Source: Alphaproteobacteria bacterium (GTDB lineage: Bacteria; Pseudomonadota; Alphaproteobacteria; JAAEOK01). From it: a stretch of DNA of 64,000 nt. The notes below the pieces were generated by a model. The model did no database searches and had not been told where the DNA came from. It saw nothing but the letters and a program-made list of their open reading frames with translations. This document shows positions 2,196 to 45,570 of this stretch, piece after piece (within the stretch, counting starts at the first letter, position 1; every line of letters begins with the position of its first letter). Both the position numbers and the translations under genes were made by a program. The stretch is taken from NCBI GenBank assembly GCA_024244705.1, contig JAAEOK010000042.1:88764-152763 (forward strand). The letters are read 5' to 3'.

Positions 2196-2963
2196 TCAAC
2201 TGAGGACCTTCTTGAGGTCTCTCAACGTTGCACGATGGGTGAGATCCAGGTGCAGCGGCGTAACCGCGATGGCATTCCGTTCGATCGCGGCTAGGTCGGA
2301 CCCCTTGCGCGACGCCTCCTCGCGTCGCAACGGCCCGATCCAATAATAAGGACGACCGTGCGGATCGATGCGCTCCTCCAGATGATCGCCCAGTTTGCGG
2401 CGGCCCTGAAACCCGACCTCGACGCCCGACACCTTGTCGGCACTGATTGCCGGGAAATTGATGTTGATGAACACGCCCGGCGGCCACCCCGTATCGATCA
2501 GTTTATGCAGGAGCTCGGGCGCAAATCGTTCGGCGGTCTTCCACATCGTCGGGCCGCGCCCGTCACGATGCTGACTGAGAGCAATCGCTGGGATTCCTAA
2601 CAGGGTGGCCTCCATCGCCGCCGCCAAGGTGCCGGAATAGGTGACGTCTTCGCCGAGATTTCCGCCCCTGTTGATCCCCGCCAGAACCAAGTCGGGCGGG
2701 TGGTCGAGGAGAATGTGCTTTACCGCGAGGAGGACGCAGTCGGTTGGCGTACCGTCGACCGAATAGCGCTGTTTGGATACGCGGCGGATACGCAGGGGGC
2801 GCCGCAGGGTCAGCGAATGCGCCGAGCCGCTCTGTTCCAACGCCGGCGCCACGACCCACACGTCGTCGCTAAGACCTCGCGCTATCCGTTCCAACAGCTT
2901 CAGCCCGCTCGAATCGAAGCCATCGTCGTTGGACAGCAGGATTCGCCGGCCCGTCGACGTCAT
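2196..2963 (-). CDS. surE: 5'/3'-nucleotidase SurE
   Basis: N-terminal [14 protein letters not shown] and conserved SurE core. Located upstream of pcm as in the canonical operon. Confidence 0.9.
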
Positions 2964-4240
2964 ACGGAGACCGCCCCCAAGCGCTCGAGTCCGCCCATAT
3001 AAGGGCGGAGAACCTCCGGAATGACCACTGACCCATCGGCCTGCTGATAGTTTTCGAGTACGCCAATGAGCGCCCGCCCGACGGCGATCCCCGACCCATT
3101 CAACGTGTGAACGAATTGGGTGCCTTTGCCACCCGTCGGGCGGAACCGGGCCTTCATGCGGCGAGCTTGGAAATCGCCACAGTTGGAACAGCTGGAAATC
3201 TCACGAAAAGTGCCCTGTCCGGGCAACCACACCTCGAAGTCATGGGTCTTGCGGGCGGCGAATCCCATGTCGCCGGTCGACAGCACGACGACGCGATAAT
3301 GCAGATCGAGCCGCTTCAGAATTTCCTCGGCGCAGTTGGTCATCCGATCCAACTCCGCATCCGACTCGTCTGGATGAGCGACACTGACCAGCTCGACCTT
3401 GTAGAACTGGTGCTGGCGCAACATGCCCCTGGTGTCCTTGCCGGCGGCGCCGGCCTCGGAACGGAAACAGGGAGTATGCGCGGTTACCCGAATCGGCAGA
3501 TCGGCGGCGTCCAGGATTTCACCCGCCACCAGATTTGTCAGCGGGACCTCGGCGGTCGGGATCAGCCAATGGTCCGTGGTGGTGCGAAACTGGTCGTCGG
3601 CGAATTTTGGCAGTTGCCCGGTGCCGAACAGGGCGGTGTCGCGGACCAAAATCGGCACGCTCATTTCCGTATAGCCGAATTCATTGGTGTGAACGTCGAG
3701 CATGAACTGGGCCAGCGCGCGCTCGAGGCGGGCGAGCGTTCCGCGCATGACGACGAACCGGGCACCGGCGAGCTTTGCCGCAACGTCGAAATCCATCAGT
3801 CCGAGCGCCTCGCCGATCTCGAAATGCTGCTTTGGGGCGAAATCGAACGCCGGTGCTTCGCCGTGCCGTCTAACCTCGATATTGGCGGTTTCGTCACTGC
3901 CAACGGGGACGTCGGCGGCGGGCAGGTTGGGCAGGCCCTGAAGGATCTCGTCGCATCTCGCCTGCGCCGCTTGGACCTCGACGTCTTTGGCCTGCATATC
4001 GGATTTGAGCGCGGCGACCTCGGCCATGAGTGCCGCCGCATCCTCACCGCGCGCCTTGGCGGCACCGATCTGCTTCGACGCCTCATTGCGACGCGTCTGC
4101 ATCTCCTGGAGCGCGGTGACGAGTGCGCGATGGTGCGCATCGATCTCGAGCACGACGGCCGATTGCGGCATCAAGCCCCGTTTGACCAGCCCCTCATCGA
4201 AGGCTTCGGGGTTCTCGCGTATCCATTTGAGATCGAACAT
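2960..4240 (-). CDS. serS: serine--tRNA ligase
   Basis: N-terminal [12 protein letters not shown] with coiled-coil tRNA-binding arm. Class II aaRS core motifs ([24 protein letters not shown]). Start chosen at the internal Met (position 4240) rather than the ORF-track extension. ATGA overlap with surE. Confidence 0.9.
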
Positions 4241-4327
4241 GACAGGTGTCGTGCTGGCGGTTGGTCGGCGGTCGCGGGCGTTATAAGCCTTGCCGCCGAT
4301 GGCGTCCAGCACACGACGATAACAGCT

Positions 4328-5131
4328 TTAGGCTTCTTCCTCCGCCTCCCGCTCGGCCCGCTTCTTCTCGACGATGCGCGCCATCAGGATCGATATCTCG
4401 TAGAGCACGATGATCGGCAGCGCGAGCCCGACTTGGCTGATGATGTCCGGCGGGGTCAGAATTGCCGCGGCAACGAATGTGCAGACGAGTGCGTACTTAC
4501 GCTTGGCGGCGAGCCCGTCCGCGCTGACGATGCCAACCCGCGCCATCAGCGTCAAGGCGATCGGCAATTGGAAACTCAGACCGAAGGCGAAGATCAGCCG
4601 CATCACCAGCGACAGGTACTCGTTGACCTTGGCTTCGAGTTGGATCGGCAACGAGCCGGGACTTACGTCGGTGGTTTCGAAGCCGAGGAAGAACCGCCAG
4701 GCCAGGGGTATCACAAGGTAATAAAGCAAGGCGCCGCCGGCAAAGAAAAGCACCGGTGTGGCGACCAGGAATGGCAGGAAGGCGCGGCGCTCGTGCCGAT
4801 AGAGGCCGGGCGCGATGAACATCCAAACCTGGCTGGCAATAATCGGAAAGGAAATGAAAATGGCGGCCCAAAAGGCGACCTTGACATAAGTGAAGAAGGC
4901 CTCATGGAGCGCGGTGTAAATCAACCGCCGGTTTTCCTGCCCCTCCATTGCATCCGCCAACGGCTGGACCAGGAATCCGTAAATTTCGTCGGCGAAGTAA
5001 TAGCAGAAGAGAAAGGCGATGAAGATCGCCGCCACCGAGTACATCAGCCGATTGCGCAACTCGATCAAATGATCGAGCAATGGCATCTTCGATTCTTCGA
5101 TGCCCTCGATTTCGGCCAGCTTTTCGCTCAC
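4328..5131 (-). CDS. tatC: twin-arginine translocase subunit TatC
   Basis: Six-TM TatC profile (LIELRNRL..., FLPFLVATPVLFFAGGALLYY). GTG start at 5131. Confidence 0.9.
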   Translation of the reverse strand: MSEKLAEIEGIEESKMPLLDHLIELRNRLMYSVAAIFIAFLFCYYFADEIYGFLVQPLADAMEGQENRRLIYTALHEAFFTYVKVAFWAAIFISFPIIASQVWMFIAPGLYRHERRAFLPFLVATPVLFFAGGALLYYLVIPLAWRFFLGFETTDVSPGSLPIQLEAKVNEYLSLVMRLIFAFGLSFQLPIALTLMARVGIVSADGLAAKRKYALVCTFVAAAILTPPDIISQVGLALPIIVLYEISILMARIVEKKRAEREAEEEA

Positions 5132-5136
5132 TGTCC

Positions 5137-5406
5137 AGAGCCCTTTCTATGAACTCGGAGCCATTCTGACGGAGCGGTTTTGGCCGTCGGGCAGGAGCGA
5201 GGAGCGATGACATGCCGGAGCATATCGAGCGACGAGCGACGCTCACGGCGGGCAAAAGCGCTCGTCCCGTAGGGTTTCCATCCGGCGGCCGACCACGGCG
5301 TCAGCAAGCTTGCCCGATGCTTCGGCATCGCGCTGCTCGAACTTCCTTGCGGACCGGCGCGCCGGATGCGAAACAGAATTGACTCGGGGTTCATAGAAAG
5401 GGCTCT
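5137..5406. mobile_element. 270-bp MITE-like non-autonomous element, copy A (imperfect terminal inverted repeats AGAGCCCTTTCTATGAAC ... GTTCATAGAAAGGGCTCT)
   Basis: About 92% identical to the reverse complement of 29893..30162. Terminal inverted repeats of 17-19 bp seen directly. No transposase ORF. Lies between tatB stop and tatC start. Confidence 0.6.
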
Positions 5407-5851
5407 AGGTTCCGGTCTTGACGTCGGCGCTCGCGACTGAGGCCACGTCCTTCGGTTCGGAATCCGGCTGGTCGGCGTTCGCGACTGAGGCCACGTCCTT
5501 CGGTTCGGAATCCGGCTGGTCGGCGCTCGCTCCTTCGGACGTATTCGAATCACCGTCGGGGATCTTGATCGGCTGCATCGCCTCCTTGATCGACCCGGTC
5601 GGGTCGATCGTGTTCTCGATCTCCTTCTTGATATCGAGCTGGCGCGTGGCATCGAGCTGCTTTTTCATTTCGTCGAGCTCGGTTTCACGGATCATGTCGT
5701 CAAGACCGCGTTGAAAGTCGCGGCCGATCGCGCGCACCTTCCCCGCCCACTGGCCGACCGTACGCAATGCGCGCGGCAAGTCTTTGGGACCGATGATGAT
5801 CACCGCGACCACGATGACCACCAGCATTTCTGTCCAGCCGATATCGAACAT
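5405..5851 (-). CDS. tatB: twin-arginine translocase subunit TatB
   Basis: N-terminal MFDIGWTEMLVVIVVAVIIIGPKDLP TM plus amphipathic helix typical of TatA/B. Long acidic tail. Sits between tatA and tatC. The stop codon TAG spans the junction with the MITE end. Confidence 0.8.
   Translation of the reverse strand: MFDIGWTEMLVVIVVAVIIIGPKDLPRALRTVGQWAGKVRAIGRDFQRGLDDMIRETELDEMKKQLDATRQLDIKKEIENTIDPTGSIKEAMQPIKIPDGDSNTSEGASADQPDSEPKDVASVANADQPDSEPKDVASVASADVKTGT
5433..5528. repeat. perfect-but-one tandem duplication, 2 x 48 bp, inside the tatB 3' coding region (encodes ADQPDSEPKDVASVA[N/S] twice)
   Basis: Direct inspection: gcgactgaggccacgtccttcggttcggaatccggctggtcggcgttc followed by the same 48-mer ending ctc. 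Confidence 0.85.
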
Positions 5852-5900: not shown

Positions 5901-6131
5901 TCAGGCGGTTTCGTCCTTCTTCACAACGACCGGATCCGGGGCCGCCTCGACCTGCTCCGCCTTGACCGCTTCGGGCTTGTCCTCGTCGTCGGTCAGCTCC
6001 TCGTTCATGCCCTTTTTGAAATTCTTGACGCCCTTCGCGACATCACCCATCACGCGCGGCAATTTGCCGGCACCAAATATGATGAGGACAATGACCAGAA
6101 TAAGGACGACCTGCCATACACCGATACTCAT
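5901..6131 (-). CDS. tatA: twin-arginine translocase subunit TatA
   Basis: MSIGVWQVVLILVIVLIIFGAGKLP plus basic/acidic tail. 76 aa. Confidence 0.85.
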   Translation of the reverse strand: MSIGVWQVVLILVIVLIIFGAGKLPRVMGDVAKGVKNFKKGMNEELTDDEDKPEAVKAEQVEAAPDPVVVKKDETA

Positions 6132-6215: not shown

Positions 6216-7301
6216 TTAATGTGGCTCTTCCCGCGAAAAAACAAAGGCTTGATCGACATCCAAGTCGATACCGACGATTTCATTCTCCTGGGGCAGAAAC
6301 TTGCCGGGCACGCGGCTGTGAAGGTGGAGCGATGGCCCGCCTTGCTGGAAAATTTCGAGATGTATCAGGCTGCTACGTCCGATAATACGCGATTCCAGCA
6401 CTTTGGCAGGATACTCCGGACCGCCGTCAGTGACCCGGCTCATACGAATTGCTTCGGGCCGTATCAAGATATCGACCGCCGTACCTTCGGCCAGTCCATC
6501 GCTCGTGATGGTGCCGACCGCCGTGGCTACCCGGCCGTCGGCAACGACGCCCTCGATGCTATTCACCTCGCTGAAGAACTCGGTGACGAAAGCCGAATTT
6601 GGATGAAAATATATCTCGATCGGTGTTCCGATCTGGGCCAGCCGACCGTTTTGCATGACGGCGATTAAATCGGCCATGAACATCGCTTCCTCGGGATCGT
6701 GGGTCACCATCAATGTCGCCGCCTCGCTATCCTTCAACACATGGAAAGCTTGGTCGCGAACTTGCTCCCTGAGACGCTGGTCCAAGCCCGAAAAAGGCTC
6801 GTCCAGCAGCATGACCTTTGGCGATGGCGCCAACGCCCGGGCGAGCGCCACCCGCTGTTGCTGCCCACCGGACAGGGTGTGGGGATAGGCAGCGGAATAA
6901 TCGAGCATGCCAACCTGGTCGAGCACGTCGTCGACACGCGCCTTGCGTTGTGCGGCGGCAATCTTTCGTAATCCGAAAGCGACATTGTCGGCGACGGAGA
7001 GATGCGGAAACAGGGCGTAGTCCTGGAACAGCATTCCGACGCCCCGCTCCTCCGGCGGCAGCAGATGACCGGGTCCCGCCACTTCCCGGCCGCCGATCAT
7101 GATCCGTCCCGATTGCAGGTCCTCGAGCCCCGCTATGAGCCTAAGCAGAGTCGTCTTGCCGCACCCCGACGGTCCAACCAAACAAACCACTTGCCCAGGC
7201 GCCACCGCGAGATGAACGTCATCGGCCGCGACGATGTCGCCGTATCGATGGTCGACGTTTTCGACCACCAAAGCCGGATGGCGCGAATCCAGCTCAGCCA
7301 T
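6216..7301 (-). CDS. ABC transporter ATP-binding protein, Fe3+/spermidine-type importer ATPase (FbpC/PotA-like)
   Basis: Walker A GPSGCGKTT, signature LSGGQQQRV, Walker B LLDEPFS. C-terminal TOBE-like domain. Start at the internal Met (MAELD...) overlapping the permease stop by 8 nt. Confidence 0.8.
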   Translation of the reverse strand: MAELDSRHPALVVENVDHRYGDIVAADDVHLAVAPGQVVCLVGPSGCGKTTLLRLIAGLEDLQSGRIMIGGREVAGPGHLLPPEERGVGMLFQDYALFPHLSVADNVAFGLRKIAAAQRKARVDDVLDQVGMLDYSAAYPHTLSGGQQQRVALARALAPSPKVMLLDEPFSGLDQRLREQVRDQAFHVLKDSEAATLMVTHDPEEAMFMADLIAVMQNGRLAQIGTPIEIYFHPNSAFVTEFFSEVNSIEGVVADGRVATAVGTITSDGLAEGTAVDILIRPEAIRMSRVTDGGPEYPAKVLESRIIGRSSLIHLEIFQQGGPSLHLHSRVPGKFLPQENEIVGIDLDVDQAFVFSREEPH

Positions 7302-8988
7302 GGTGGTCGCCCGGGCGGGCACGAGCGATCGCCCGGCTCAGGATCACGACCGGCACGATACCGACAAGGACGATGGCCAGCGCGGCGCTCGAAGATTCGG
7401 CGAGTTGCTCATCCGAGGCCAGTTCGAAAACCCGGATCGCCAACGTATCGTAGTTGAAGGGGCGGATAATAAGGGTCGCCGGCAGTTCCTTCATGACATC
7501 GACGAACACCAGAAGGCCGGCGGTCAACAGGCTGCTCCACATGATCGGCGCATGAACCCGCCACAAGGTACCCACGGTCCCGGCGCCAAGGGTCCTCGCC
7601 GCGCCGTCCATGCTTCGCGTCACGCGGCCCAAGCTGGCTTCAACGGTCCCGACCGAAACCGCCAGAAACCGCACCAGATAAGCATAAATCACGGCAAACA
7701 GGGTGCCGCTCAGCAGCAAACCCGTCGATATGCCGAAGATCGCCCGCATCCAGGTATCGACCGAGTTGTCGATCGCGGCGAAGGGCAGGAGCACACCGAC
7801 CGCGACGACCGCGCCTGGAATCGCATACCCCATTCCGACCACGCGGATCGCCAGTTCGGTTACCCGTCCCGGCCGCAGGCGATTGCCATAGGCCATGATT
7901 ACAGCCAACAGGACCGCACAAGCCGAGGCGATTGTCGCCAGGGTCAACGAGTGAAGGGCAAGCTTGAAGAACCGGGCATCGACGGTCTTGTCAAATGTTT
8001 CGATTGTCCACACCGTCAGAGCAGCGCAGGGAATGAGAAACCCGAAGGCGACCGGCGCCAAGCATGCCATGAAAGTCAGGGCGCGGCGGCCGGGGTCCAG
8101 TTCGCGTCGCGGCAGCGGCCGGTAAGTCACTGTCGCATGGTGGAAACGCGCGCCCCTTCGGTGCCATCGCTCGAACAGGATCAGCACCAGCATGAAGAGC
8201 ATGAAGACGGCGGCGAGTTGTGCCGCGGCCGCCGGGGAGCCTAGACCGAACCAAGTACGATAGATCCCGGTGGTAAAGGTGTCGACGGCGAAGTACTGAA
8301 CCGTGCCGAAATCGTTCAACGCCTCCATTTGGGCGAGGGCAACGCCGGCGACGATCGATGGCCGCGCCAGCGGAATGGCGACCAGGAGGAAGCTACGCAG
8401 GCTGCTGCAACCAAGTGTTCGGCTGACTTCCAGAGCGCAGACCGATTGCTCGAGAAAAGCCGATCTGGCGAGCAGATAAACATAGGGGTACAGCACCAGG
8501 GTCATCATGACTATGGCACCACCGAGGGACCGTATCTCGGGAAACCAGTAGTCTCGAGCCGAGGTCCAGCCGAACACGTCGCGAAGTCCCGATTGCACCG
8601 GTCCCGCGTAATCGAGCAGGCCGGTATAGGTGTAAGCGATCACGTAGGCGGGAACCGCCAAGGGCAGCAACAATGCCCATTCGAACAGACGCCGGCCGGG
8701 AAAATCAGCCATGGTCACGAGCCACGCCGTGCCCACGCCGAGGACCAGAACGCCGGCCCCGACCCCGATCATCAGCCACAGCGAATTGATCACATAGGAC
8801 GCAAGCACCGTCGAAGCGAGGTGCTGCCAGATATCCCCGCTGGGTACCAAAACGAAGGCCGCGACGACGAGCACCGGCACGGCGACCATGAACGCGATCA
8901 GCAGGATCAACACCGTCCATGGCCTGAACTCGATGCGGCCCCGCGCGGGCATGAACCGAGCCTGCACCTGGTCGGTCGATTCAGTCAC
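7294..8988 (-). CDS. iron(III)-type ABC transporter permease, duplicated two-domain form (FbpB-like)
   Basis: About 12 TM segments with two ABC-permease EAA-like loops. Translationally coupled to the ATPase gene. Start could also be the downstream Met (MPARGRIE...). Confidence 0.75.
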   Translation of the reverse strand: MTESTDQVQARFMPARGRIEFRPWTVLILLIAFMVAVPVLVVAAFVLVPSGDIWQHLASTVLASYVINSLWLMIGVGAGVLVLGVGTAWLVTMADFPGRRLFEWALLLPLAVPAYVIAYTYTGLLDYAGPVQSGLRDVFGWTSARDYWFPEIRSLGGAIVMMTLVLYPYVYLLARSAFLEQSVCALEVSRTLGCSSLRSFLLVAIPLARPSIVAGVALAQMEALNDFGTVQYFAVDTFTTGIYRTWFGLGSPAAAAQLAAVFMLFMLVLILFERWHRRGARFHHATVTYRPLPRRELDPGRRALTFMACLAPVAFGFLIPCAALTVWTIETFDKTVDARFFKLALHSLTLATIASACAVLLAVIMAYGNRLRPGRVTELAIRVVGMGYAIPGAVVAVGVLLPFAAIDNSVDTWMRAIFGISTGLLLSGTLFAVIYAYLVRFLAVSVGTVEASLGRVTRSMDGAARTLGAGTVGTLWRVHAPIMWSSLLTAGLLVFVDVMKELPATLIIRPFNYDTLAIRVFELASDEQLAESSSAALAIVLVGIVPVVILSRAIARARPGDHHG

Positions 8989-29859: not shown

Positions 29860-29892
29860 GGCAACATGTCCTCGGCATTGGGTTCCGGATAC

Positions 29893-30162
29893 AGAGCCCT
29901 TTCTATGAACTCCGAGTCAATTCTGTTTCGCATGTGGCGCGCCGGTCCACAAGGAAGCACGCGCAGCGCGATGCAGAAGCATCGGGCAAGCTTGCTGACG
30001 CCGTGGTCGGCGGCCAGATGGAAACCCTACGGGACGGGCGCTTTTGGCCGCCGAGGGTGTCGCTCGTCGCTCGATATGCTTCGGCATGTCGTCGCTCCTC
30101 GCTCCCGCCCGACAGCCAAAACCGCTCCGTCAGAATCGCTCTGAATTCATAGAAAGGGCTCT
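29893..30162. mobile_element. 270-bp MITE-like element, copy B (inverted relative to copy A). Located 33 bp upstream of the ilvD start codon.
   Basis: About 92% identity to the reverse complement of 5137..5406. Same terminal inverted repeats. Confidence 0.6.
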
Positions 30163-42002: not shown

Positions 42003-42076
42003 GGCCGGGTGGCAGAGTGGTTATGCAGAGGACTGCAAATCCTTGTACGTCGGTTCGATTCCGGCCCCGGCCTCCA
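42003..42076 (+). tRNA. tRNA-Cys (anticodon GCA)
   Basis: Cloverleaf folded by eye: acceptor GGCCGGG/CCCGGCC, anticodon loop CUGCAAA, T-loop GGTTCGATTCC, encoded CCA. Confidence 0.85.
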
Positions 42077-45494: not shown

Positions 45495-45570
45495 TCCCCG
45501 GTAGCTCAGTTGGTAGAGCGGGTGGCTGTTAACCACCATGTCGCTGGTTCGAGTCCGGCCCGGGGAGCCA
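45495..45570 (+). tRNA. tRNA-Asn (anticodon GUU)
   Basis: Acceptor TCCCCGG/CCGGGGA, anticodon loop CUGUUAA, GGTTCGAGTCC T-loop, CCA encoded. Followed by a GC-rich segment plus T7 run (likely terminator). Confidence 0.9.

Follow-up and report, generated by a model that had tools for sequence, protein, structure and literature searches.

How did a repeat element come to lie between tatB and tatC of a bacterial export operon, and what became of the two genes that it separates? The question is raised by a 64-kb stretch of DNA, hereafter the window (contig JAAEOK010000042.1 of GenBank assembly GCA_024244705.1, positions 88,764 to 152,763), from the metagenome-assembled genome (MAG) of an uncultured alphaproteobacterium, a group in some members of which the Tat system has been reported to be essential. 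Comparison with orthologous loci supports the conclusion that the repeat was inserted where tatB and tatC are otherwise tightly joined, and that both reading frames are intact and abut the element. As to what the element is, we consider it reasonably probable that it represents a non-autonomous, non-coding palindromic repeat resembling a miniature inverted-repeat transposable element (MITE), possibly targeting TA dinucleotides, which was inserted at the tatB stop/tatC start boundary and is co-transcribed with the genes on either side.

In the window, tatB (148 amino acids; 5405-5851, minus strand) ends with a TAG stop codon at 5405-5407 that falls within the terminal bases of the repeat, and tatC (267 amino acids; 4328-5131, minus strand) begins with a GTG codon at 5129-5131. 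The two are separated by 273 nt (5132-5404), all but 3 nt of which are taken up by the MITE-like repeat copy 1, which runs on the minus strand from tip to tip (YAGAGC...GCTCTR) over 5136-5407 and shares 5135-5406 with a second copy, its boundaries being uncertain by ~3 nt. Its inverted termini are perfect over 18 nt (AGAGCCCTTTCTATGAAC, at 5137-5154 on the plus strand and 5389-5406 on the minus strand), and this terminal inverted repeat (TIR) 18-mer was counted four times in the window, where chance would give 0.03 occurrences; two of the four bound a second copy. Beyond the perfect 18 nt the inverted ends extend to 28 pairs over ~33 nt. Copy 2 (29892/29893-30164, 272 nt, plus strand) lies 24.5 kb away in the opposite orientation and is 92% identical to copy 1, with 24 differing positions and identical inverted ends; the similarity between these two copies in the 64-kb window spans CCAGAGCCC... 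to ...GGGCTCT. It sits 96 nt downstream of the stop codon (30261) of an MmyB-like regulator gene, and on its other side 32 nt (29860-29891) separate it from the start of ilvD (29859), which must therefore be transcribed either through or from it; the neighboring genes were assigned with Pfam.

The sequence and the list of open reading frames (ORFs) bear out what a sequence-only reading of this DNA had described, namely an element that sits exactly between tatB and tatC and touches both frames, with the tatB TAG overlapping the terminal bases of the repeat and the tatC GTG lying 5 nt outside the TIR. The latter distance holds when it is measured from the AGAGC terminus, and the GTG is 3 nt from the boundary common to both copies. 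The element has several features of a MITE: a length of 272 nt in both copies, inside the ~50-600 bp size range of bacterial MITEs, inverted ends, no coding capacity and an empty site in relatives. Its G+C content equals that of its surroundings. An identity with REP or BIME repeats, which are clustered 20-40-nt palindromic units, was rejected, the element forming one unit of 272 nt whose inverted ends are long and which lacks short repeated units.

The evidence for insertion comes from the contigs encoding the seven closest TatC proteins (80-86% identity to that of the window), a set of eight loci with seven distinct junction sequences and seven distinct TatC proteins. The gene order ABC transporter-tatA-tatB-tatC-serS-surE-pcm was found in all the relatives fetched, and their tatB-tatC junctions are short. 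The two genes overlap at a spacing of -4 nt at locus L032 (GTTGA overlap) and at L044 and L045, which encode the same TatC protein (CAGTGA overlap, TatB ending in KTGTDQ-stop), and of -1 nt at L051 (TAGTG overlap); they are spaced by +3 nt at L046 (KTGT-TAA-CCG-TTG), L047 (KTGT-TGA-ATC-GTG) and L052 (KTGT-TAG-TCC-TTG), and by +33 nt at L037, where a hairpin forms the spacer. Because the orthologous spacings run from -4 to +33 nt against +273 nt at the window junction, where copy 1 forms the spacer, we regard the repeat as an insertion. The sequence-only reading had proposed the same and had named orthologues with an equal 270-nt spacer as the observation that would contradict it; none of the eight loci has such a spacer. 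With relatives that are only 80-86% identical in TatC, the comparison speaks for insertion in this lineage and does not reach as far as recent mobility.

The C-terminus of TatB appears to have come through the event unaltered. TatB ends at the same ...KTGT-stop in the window and at L037, L046, L047 and L052, and the element-free L052 carries the identical 15 nt, AAGACCGGAACCTAG, so that its AAGACCGGAACC-TAG-TCC-TTG-TCC-GAA can be set directly against the AAGACCGGAACC-TAG-(element)-ACA-GTG-AGC-GAA of the window. Since four orthologues share the KTGT-stop and L052 has the identical AAGACCGGAACCTAG, the tatB stop is either ancestral or was simply regenerated, which goes against the suggestion of the sequence-only reading that the insertion had redefined this end of the protein. 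Its proposed check, the length of the TatB C-terminus in orthologues, gives the same end in four of them and a difference of at most two residues from L044 and L045, whose TatB is longer than that of the window by these two residues. Relatives have kept the nucleotide sequence of the AAGACCGGAACC codons, which lie 7-10 nt ahead of the tatC start and probably double as a weak ribosome-binding region of tatC.

Whether the element also touches tatC depends on where this gene begins. The TatC of the window is 100% identical to the deposited protein from a 184-kb contig of this Alphaproteobacteria bacterium MAG (NCBI MCP4328091.1, 252 amino acids), which starts at the ATG at 5084-5086, 45 nt downstream of the GTG at 5129-5131; were that start correct, the element would lie 48 nt from the tatC frame without touching it. 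A GAGGG motif is present upstream of the ATG, and an Inquilinus TatC (P0065) is likewise annotated from the equivalent methionine. Even so, we hold an ATG start to be quite unlikely, given that the GAGGG lies at 16 nt, a poor Shine-Dalgarno (SD) spacing, that all other relatives examined have 8-40 residues before the conserved KMPLL(D/E)HL, and that the residues preceding the methionine, (I/V)(E/D)(E/G/A)(S/A)K, are conserved as protein. Furthermore, the GTG-AGC-GAA of the window aligns with the TTG-TCC-GAA of L052 directly after tatB, where the starts of relatives abut that gene, and the resulting (M)SE N-terminus is common to both. Based on the extension before KMPLL in relatives and on this alignment, we accept the GTG at 5129-5131, the earliest start codon available in this frame, as the tatC start, and the deposited start is probably 15 codons too short. 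A 400-amino-acid "TatC" (P0004) was considered as a possible read-through of an element and rejected; it contains an internal duplication of ~130 residues, probably a mis-assembly, and the extensions of long TatC homologues are C-terminal, not N-terminal.

Searches for further members of the family led to one distant homologue. A word-indexed protein search with the translated open frame of the element returned nothing; an exhaustive HMMER search of 1.84 billion representative proteins returned an 84-amino-acid spurious ORF (P0122, E 2e-4), which led to L049, a 550-nt metagenome contig in ENA (ERZ28655181) with an element at 55-327 that measures 273 nt from tip to tip. The follow-up profile search found only P0122 again, and an nhmmer search with a three-copy profile detected no further copies in ~120 kb of retrieved loci, including 20.8 kb around the L037 tat operon. 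The L049 element is 59% identical to the window copies overall, with 65-80% conservation in the 5' half and a random level at positions 161-220. Its inverted ends differ from those of the window (TAGATTAGAGCAGGATCAAYTGAAATGG) yet are self-complementary over 28 nt with one mismatch, and ~20 base pairs are kept by compensating changes between the window copies and L049, equally on both strands. Its neighbors are, on one side, a fragmentary ORF of 12 codons where the contig ends and, on the other, a YqgE/AlgH-like ORF whose ATG is ~5 nt away from the inverted repeat.

Two matches met during these searches were set aside. The inverted end AGAGCCCTTTCTATGAA (5137-5154 and 29893-29910) translates to RALSMN, a motif of ABC-transporter ATPases, and can act as a trap for word-based searches; the match inspected at L039 6343-6362 lies in an ABC-ATPase gene (ARALSMNP) and is almost certainly a coincidence, because the TIR happens to encode RALSMN. 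The protein P0121, a 767-amino-acid ORF made of a tandem array with a period of ~64 codons, showed a weak 25-residue match to the frame of the element twelve times over, and was discarded as noise.

The family tips defined with the help of L049 (YAGAGC...GCTCTR, 272-273 nt from tip to tip) place the whole tatB TAG within copy 1 (5136-5407). The most economical empty site would be ...AAG ACC GGA ACC TAG ACA GTG AGC..., containing GGAACCTAGACAGTGAGC; read as ACC-TA-GACAGTG, it has the same architecture as L052, that is, a stop codon, three bases and a start codon. We propose that the element was inserted at the TA of the tatB stop codon with duplication of the TA. As the element (GAGCCC...GGGCTC) starts with G, the duplicated TA followed by this G would give TAG and regenerate the stop whatever the old third base had been, and TatB would for this reason keep its native KTGT end. 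At the downstream junction, an original TA-GACAGTG would have become the present TG-GACAGTG, which requires an A-to-G change in the right-hand TA and would leave the tatC GTG three bases beyond untouched. The flanking dinucleotides are TA/TG in copy 1, CA/TG in copy 2 and TA/TA both in L049 and in the L037 hairpin, and copy 2 would need two changes under the TA-duplication model; its CA...TG pair is perfectly inverted, and the simpler view is that it belongs to the ends. Taken together, the flanks are compatible either with a decayed TA duplication or with YA...TR as part of the inverted ends, and in both forms such termini fit the 5'-TA-3' termini and TA targets tabulated for the Correia, ERIC and RUP repeats (PMC2229807). 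A further match was seen outside the tips, in the left flanks (5375-5388 and 29880-29892), where CCGGA occurs 3-4 nt beyond the same (strand-A 5') tip of both window copies (CCGGAACCT|AGAGC and CCGGATAC|AGAGC); it is ancestral at the tat locus, where it belongs to the KTGT codons, and may reflect chance or a target preference.

A small protein encoded in the one open frame that runs through the whole length of the element was considered and rejected, as most of the 24 differences between the window copies change amino acids and no consistent codon periodicity is seen against L049. Protein homologues of this frame were not found except for the one spurious ORF over a homologous element. The RNA of the element is predicted to fold far more stably than shuffled sequence (z = -6.3 to -7.5; -7.5 and -6.5 for copy 1), and the two-copy consensus has an outer helix of ~28 pairs enclosing two internal stem-loop domains. 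Nonetheless, a strand-specific RNA function was also rejected as unsupported: the perfect RNAalifold structure on the tat-sense strand is circular as evidence, and an unbiased test with Watson-Crick pairs only gave no G-U versus A-C asymmetry (3:2 and 4:4), which is consistent with two copies that face their neighbors in opposite orientations. Rfam 15 contains no match to the element, the best score being 16 bits (E 0.8) against a cut-off of 45 bits. An intrinsic terminator was predicted in none of the three copies, and none of them contains a sigma-70-like -35/-10 pair on either strand, in a scan that is crude for an uncultured alphaproteobacterium.

How, then, would tatC still be expressed? 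Because the element is without a recognizable promoter or terminator, the tatA promoter most likely still drives transcription of tatC, through the element. Termination-reinitiation coupling is classically seen with genes that overlap or abut, as tatB and tatC do in the relatives, and folding predictions suggest how this coupling could be maintained in the window. In the predicted fold of the transcript in its context, the first turn of a basal helix of 20 bp holds the tatB UAG, and the tatC GUG comes 3 nt after that helix. The tatB-proximal inverted end (5375-5407, minus strand) would provide the 5' arm of the outer stem, holding the stop codon, as in the two-copy consensus fold with its 28-pair outer helix; the tatC-proximal inverted end (5136-5167, minus strand) would provide the 3' arm, and this arm is predicted to contain the sole SD-like motif, AAGGG at 5141-5145, 9 nt before the tatC GTG. 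Stop and start codons would thus remain physically adjacent in the folded transcript despite the 273 nt of sequence between them. On terminating at the end of tatB, a ribosome would melt the base of the helix and free AAGGG and the adjoining GUG, and coupling would survive. The calculated SD strength of tatC is -4.5 kcal/mol in the window, and five relatives give values of -3.3 to -4.3, compared with -5.9 to -7.0 for tatA, tatB and ilvD; because the tatC site is weak in the window and in its relatives alike, translation of tatC probably depends on ribosomes that terminate on tatB. By analogy with the Correia repeats only, the long helix is also a plausible target of RNase III, and cleavage there would make the stability of the tatAB message independent of that of the tatC message. 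The exact stop-to-start placement of the element is best explained by selection, in that only such insertions survive in this operon.

Several observations weigh against the reading of the element as an inserted, mobile MITE-like repeat. Exact-TIR scans of 185,579 GTDB species genomes, of JGI metagenomes and of IMG/VR, together with a blastn search of the PLSDB plasmids, gave only single chance matches, so that the case for mobility is drawn from two copies and one distant homologue. An autonomous insertion sequence with the ends of the element (YAGAGCCCTTTCTATGAA) was not found in the window, which also has no further TIR match. There is no clean target-site duplication: TA...TA is seen only in L049 and in the L037 hairpin, and no other choice of boundaries yields a duplication. 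Finally, a comparison of the window copies with L049 shows stronger conservation in the core and the length than in the inverted ends, which is the reverse of the usual MITE pattern and the main unexplained feature; it hints at a constraint other than transposase binding. One alternative is that the element is more than selfish DNA, namely a functional structured module, as RNA or DNA, whose core and length are under selection and which has been recruited near start codons to regulate the downstream gene, here the TatB:TatC ratio. The preserved length of 272-273 nt at 59% identity, the conserved 5' half and the stems kept by compensating changes all point in this direction, as do the hairpin with the same tips at the L037 tatB-tatC junction and the fact that each of the three copies ends at a distance of 3-33 nt from a start, namely that of tatC, of ilvD or of the YqgE/AlgH-like ORF of L049. 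We nevertheless regard this as unlikely, since the element has no Rfam family, a strand-specific G-U versus A-C asymmetry is absent and the compensating changes are equal on both strands, the window copies face their downstream genes with opposite strands, and inverted ends must co-vary in any transposon, in a sample here of three copies. Also improbable in our view is a further reading, in which an undescribed family of structured mobile modules with conserved length and core and co-varying ends favors stop-codon TA dinucleotides or sites just upstream of starts; at the tatB-tatC junction its self-folding would preserve or tune termination-reinitiation coupling by holding stop and start at the base of the helix, and the window and L037 may represent two separate hits at this junction.

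An outward promoter within the element, from which tatC and, at copy 2, ilvD would be transcribed independently of the upstream gene, is about as doubtful as a regulatory module. MITE-borne promoters have been documented (PMC10969869), the position of copy 2 means that ilvD transcription starts in or crosses the element, and in L049 the element fills most of the space between two seemingly diverging ORFs; the left-hand one of these, however, is the 12-codon fragment at the contig end and may not be a real gene, and the scan of the three copies mentioned above gave no promoter-like pair. That the repeat was wrongly joined into the tat operon during assembly is a concern, as the source is a MAG and repeats are typical points of breakage and joining in assemblies, but here it is very improbable. 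Both flanks are collinear with the eight orthologous loci (tatA-tatB before the junction, tatC-serS-surE-pcm after it), the junctions fall exactly at the gene ends, and the two copies, which differ at 24 positions, were resolved as distinct sequences. We retain the MITE-like insertion as the preferred reading.

The age of this insertion is a separate matter, on which the L037 junction bears. At L037 2964-3000 (= L050 9964-10000), a 37-nt hairpin, CTAGAGCATGGTCC-CATATGATC-GGATCATGCTCTAG, fills the tatB-tatC spacer. The 33-nt spacer extends from the same TAG to just before the tatC ATG and, with the preceding CTAG, forms a 14-bp hairpin of CTAGAGCATGGTCC and GGATCATGCTCTAG whose tips, TAGAGC/GCTCTA, are those of the family, with TA...TA flanks; without the hairpin, the junction would read ACC-TAG-ATG. 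Its arms match the inverted ends of L049 at 10-11 of 14 positions and those of the window at 7-9 of 14. The hairpin may be what is left of a related element that occupied this very site and has collapsed, a lead that is drawn from about a dozen bases. One could then suppose that the insertion is ancient, shared by the ancestor of the window and L037 organisms and since collapsed to 37 nt in the latter, in line with the identical TAG at which both spacers begin, the end of both just before tatC and the family tips. We find this rather unlikely for the following reasons: (i) the L037 arms are of the L049 subtype, not of the window subtype; (ii) the window copies are 92% identical to each other, while the TatC proteins of the two organisms are 85% identical, and copy 1 accordingly looks younger than the split; and (iii) the closest relative, L032 (86%), has a 4-nt overlap without any trace of the element. 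The same data would be explained if a GC-rich, gene-dense operon offers few TA sites that tolerate an insertion and one of these was hit independently in both lineages, which we consider more likely than an old insertion.

MITE-like repeats within operons are well documented, and the element of the window is a MITE-like repeat of an unnamed family. The statement of the sequence-only reading that an insertion of this kind into an operon is unusual was therefore too strong, as ERIC, Correia and Chunjie repeats are all known inside operons and are co-transcribed (PMC2229807, PMC10969869). As summarized in PMC10969869, the MITE Chunjie of Geobacter uraniireducens Rf4 (Chen et al. 2008, Genetics 179:2291) lies in a phosphate-uptake operon, which it leaves undisturbed. 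The event is of the same kind, a small non-coding insert between co-transcribed genes; Chunjie, however, is present in dozens of copies, flanked by clear direct repeats, in the genome of a cultured organism, in contrast to the two copies without a clean duplication seen here, and it has no apparent sequence similarity to the window element and belongs to another host phylum. The Correia (NEMIS) repeats of Neisseria have inverted ends of ~24 bp and TA termini, are co-transcribed and form long hairpins that are cut by RNase III (PMC2229807, PMC10969869), and the 20-bp basal helix of the window may be a comparable substrate. They differ in their length of 107-155 bp, in carrying a site for integration host factor (IHF) and in being present in hundreds of copies, and no sequence similarity to the window element was apparent. 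The ERIC (IRU) repeats of enterobacteria are imperfect palindromes in transcribed intergenic regions of operons, with TA termini and co-transcription on both sides, and they affect mRNA stability through ribosome-dependent refolding (PMC2229807). At ~127 bp, with contiguous inverted ends of 7 bp and in another lineage, they stand apart from the window element, which has double their length and contains two stem-loop domains inside its ends. The element differs from these named repeat families in size (272 nt versus 107-155 or 127 nt) and in host lineage.

The RUP repeats of Streptococcus pneumoniae, like other TA-targeting MITEs mobilized by IS630, insert at TA with duplication of the TA (PMC2229807). 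Such TA targeting would explain both the regenerated TAG and the stop codon as a permissive target; on the other hand, no IS630-like parent with matching ends was found here, and the TA duplication is intact only in L049 and in the L037 hairpin. Genes 38 and 25 of phage T4 have split ribosome-binding sites, in which an mRNA hairpin brings an upstream translation signal near the start codon. The hairpins of T4 are ~20 nt long and are not mobile, in contrast to the structure of 272 nt in the window, and we put the likeness forward as a proposal. A literature search combining MITE with tatC yielded nothing relevant.

The locus is a clean natural example of a gene-dense, translationally coupled export operon that has absorbed a 272-nt insertion, one which is predicted to fold aside in the transcript. 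If coupling is indeed mediated by the helix, the locus would illustrate how a palindromic repeat within an operon can come close to being neutral. In addition, the analysis offers a probable correction of the deposited TatC start and flags an unnamed repeat family in uncultured Rhodospirillales-like bacteria; otherwise, the finding is an ordinary one.

On the minus strand of the window, the operon and its neighbors are ordered as an ABC-transporter ATPase gene (6216-7322), tatA, tatB, repeat copy 1, tatC and serS (2960-4312). Its assignment as tatABC follows from two matches to Pfam PF02416 (TatA_B_E) and one to PF00902 in neighboring genes on one strand, and from the synteny tatA-tatB-tatC-serS-surE-pcm in relatives. 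The tatA gene (76 amino acids; 5901-6131, minus strand) was taken, like tatB and tatC, from the ORF list, matches PF02416 with an E value of 2e-12 and is syntenic with tatA of L032, L037 and L046. TatB, which also matches PF02416, is 61% identical to the TatB proteins of L032 and L037, and TatC matches PF00902 with an E value of 3e-72. The nearest named relatives by TatC (70-74% identity) are the Rhodospirillales genera Inquilinus, Skermanella and Fodinicurvata.

The tail of TatB contains a 48-nt tandem duplication (5423-5530; 2.2 copies, 96% match) that encodes ADQPDSEPKDVASVA(N/S) twice, begins 16 nt from repeat copy 1 and is the sole tandem repeat in the window. TatB orthologues are without it, and slippage near a palindrome is one example of how it may be linked to the insertion. 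Antisense to serS and tatC runs a 681-amino-acid open frame (3107-5152, plus strand), which seems to be one of the spurious long ORFs common in GC-rich DNA and not a gene. Two tRNA genes, at 42003-42073 and 45495-45567, are the sole Rfam matches above the gathering score in the window.

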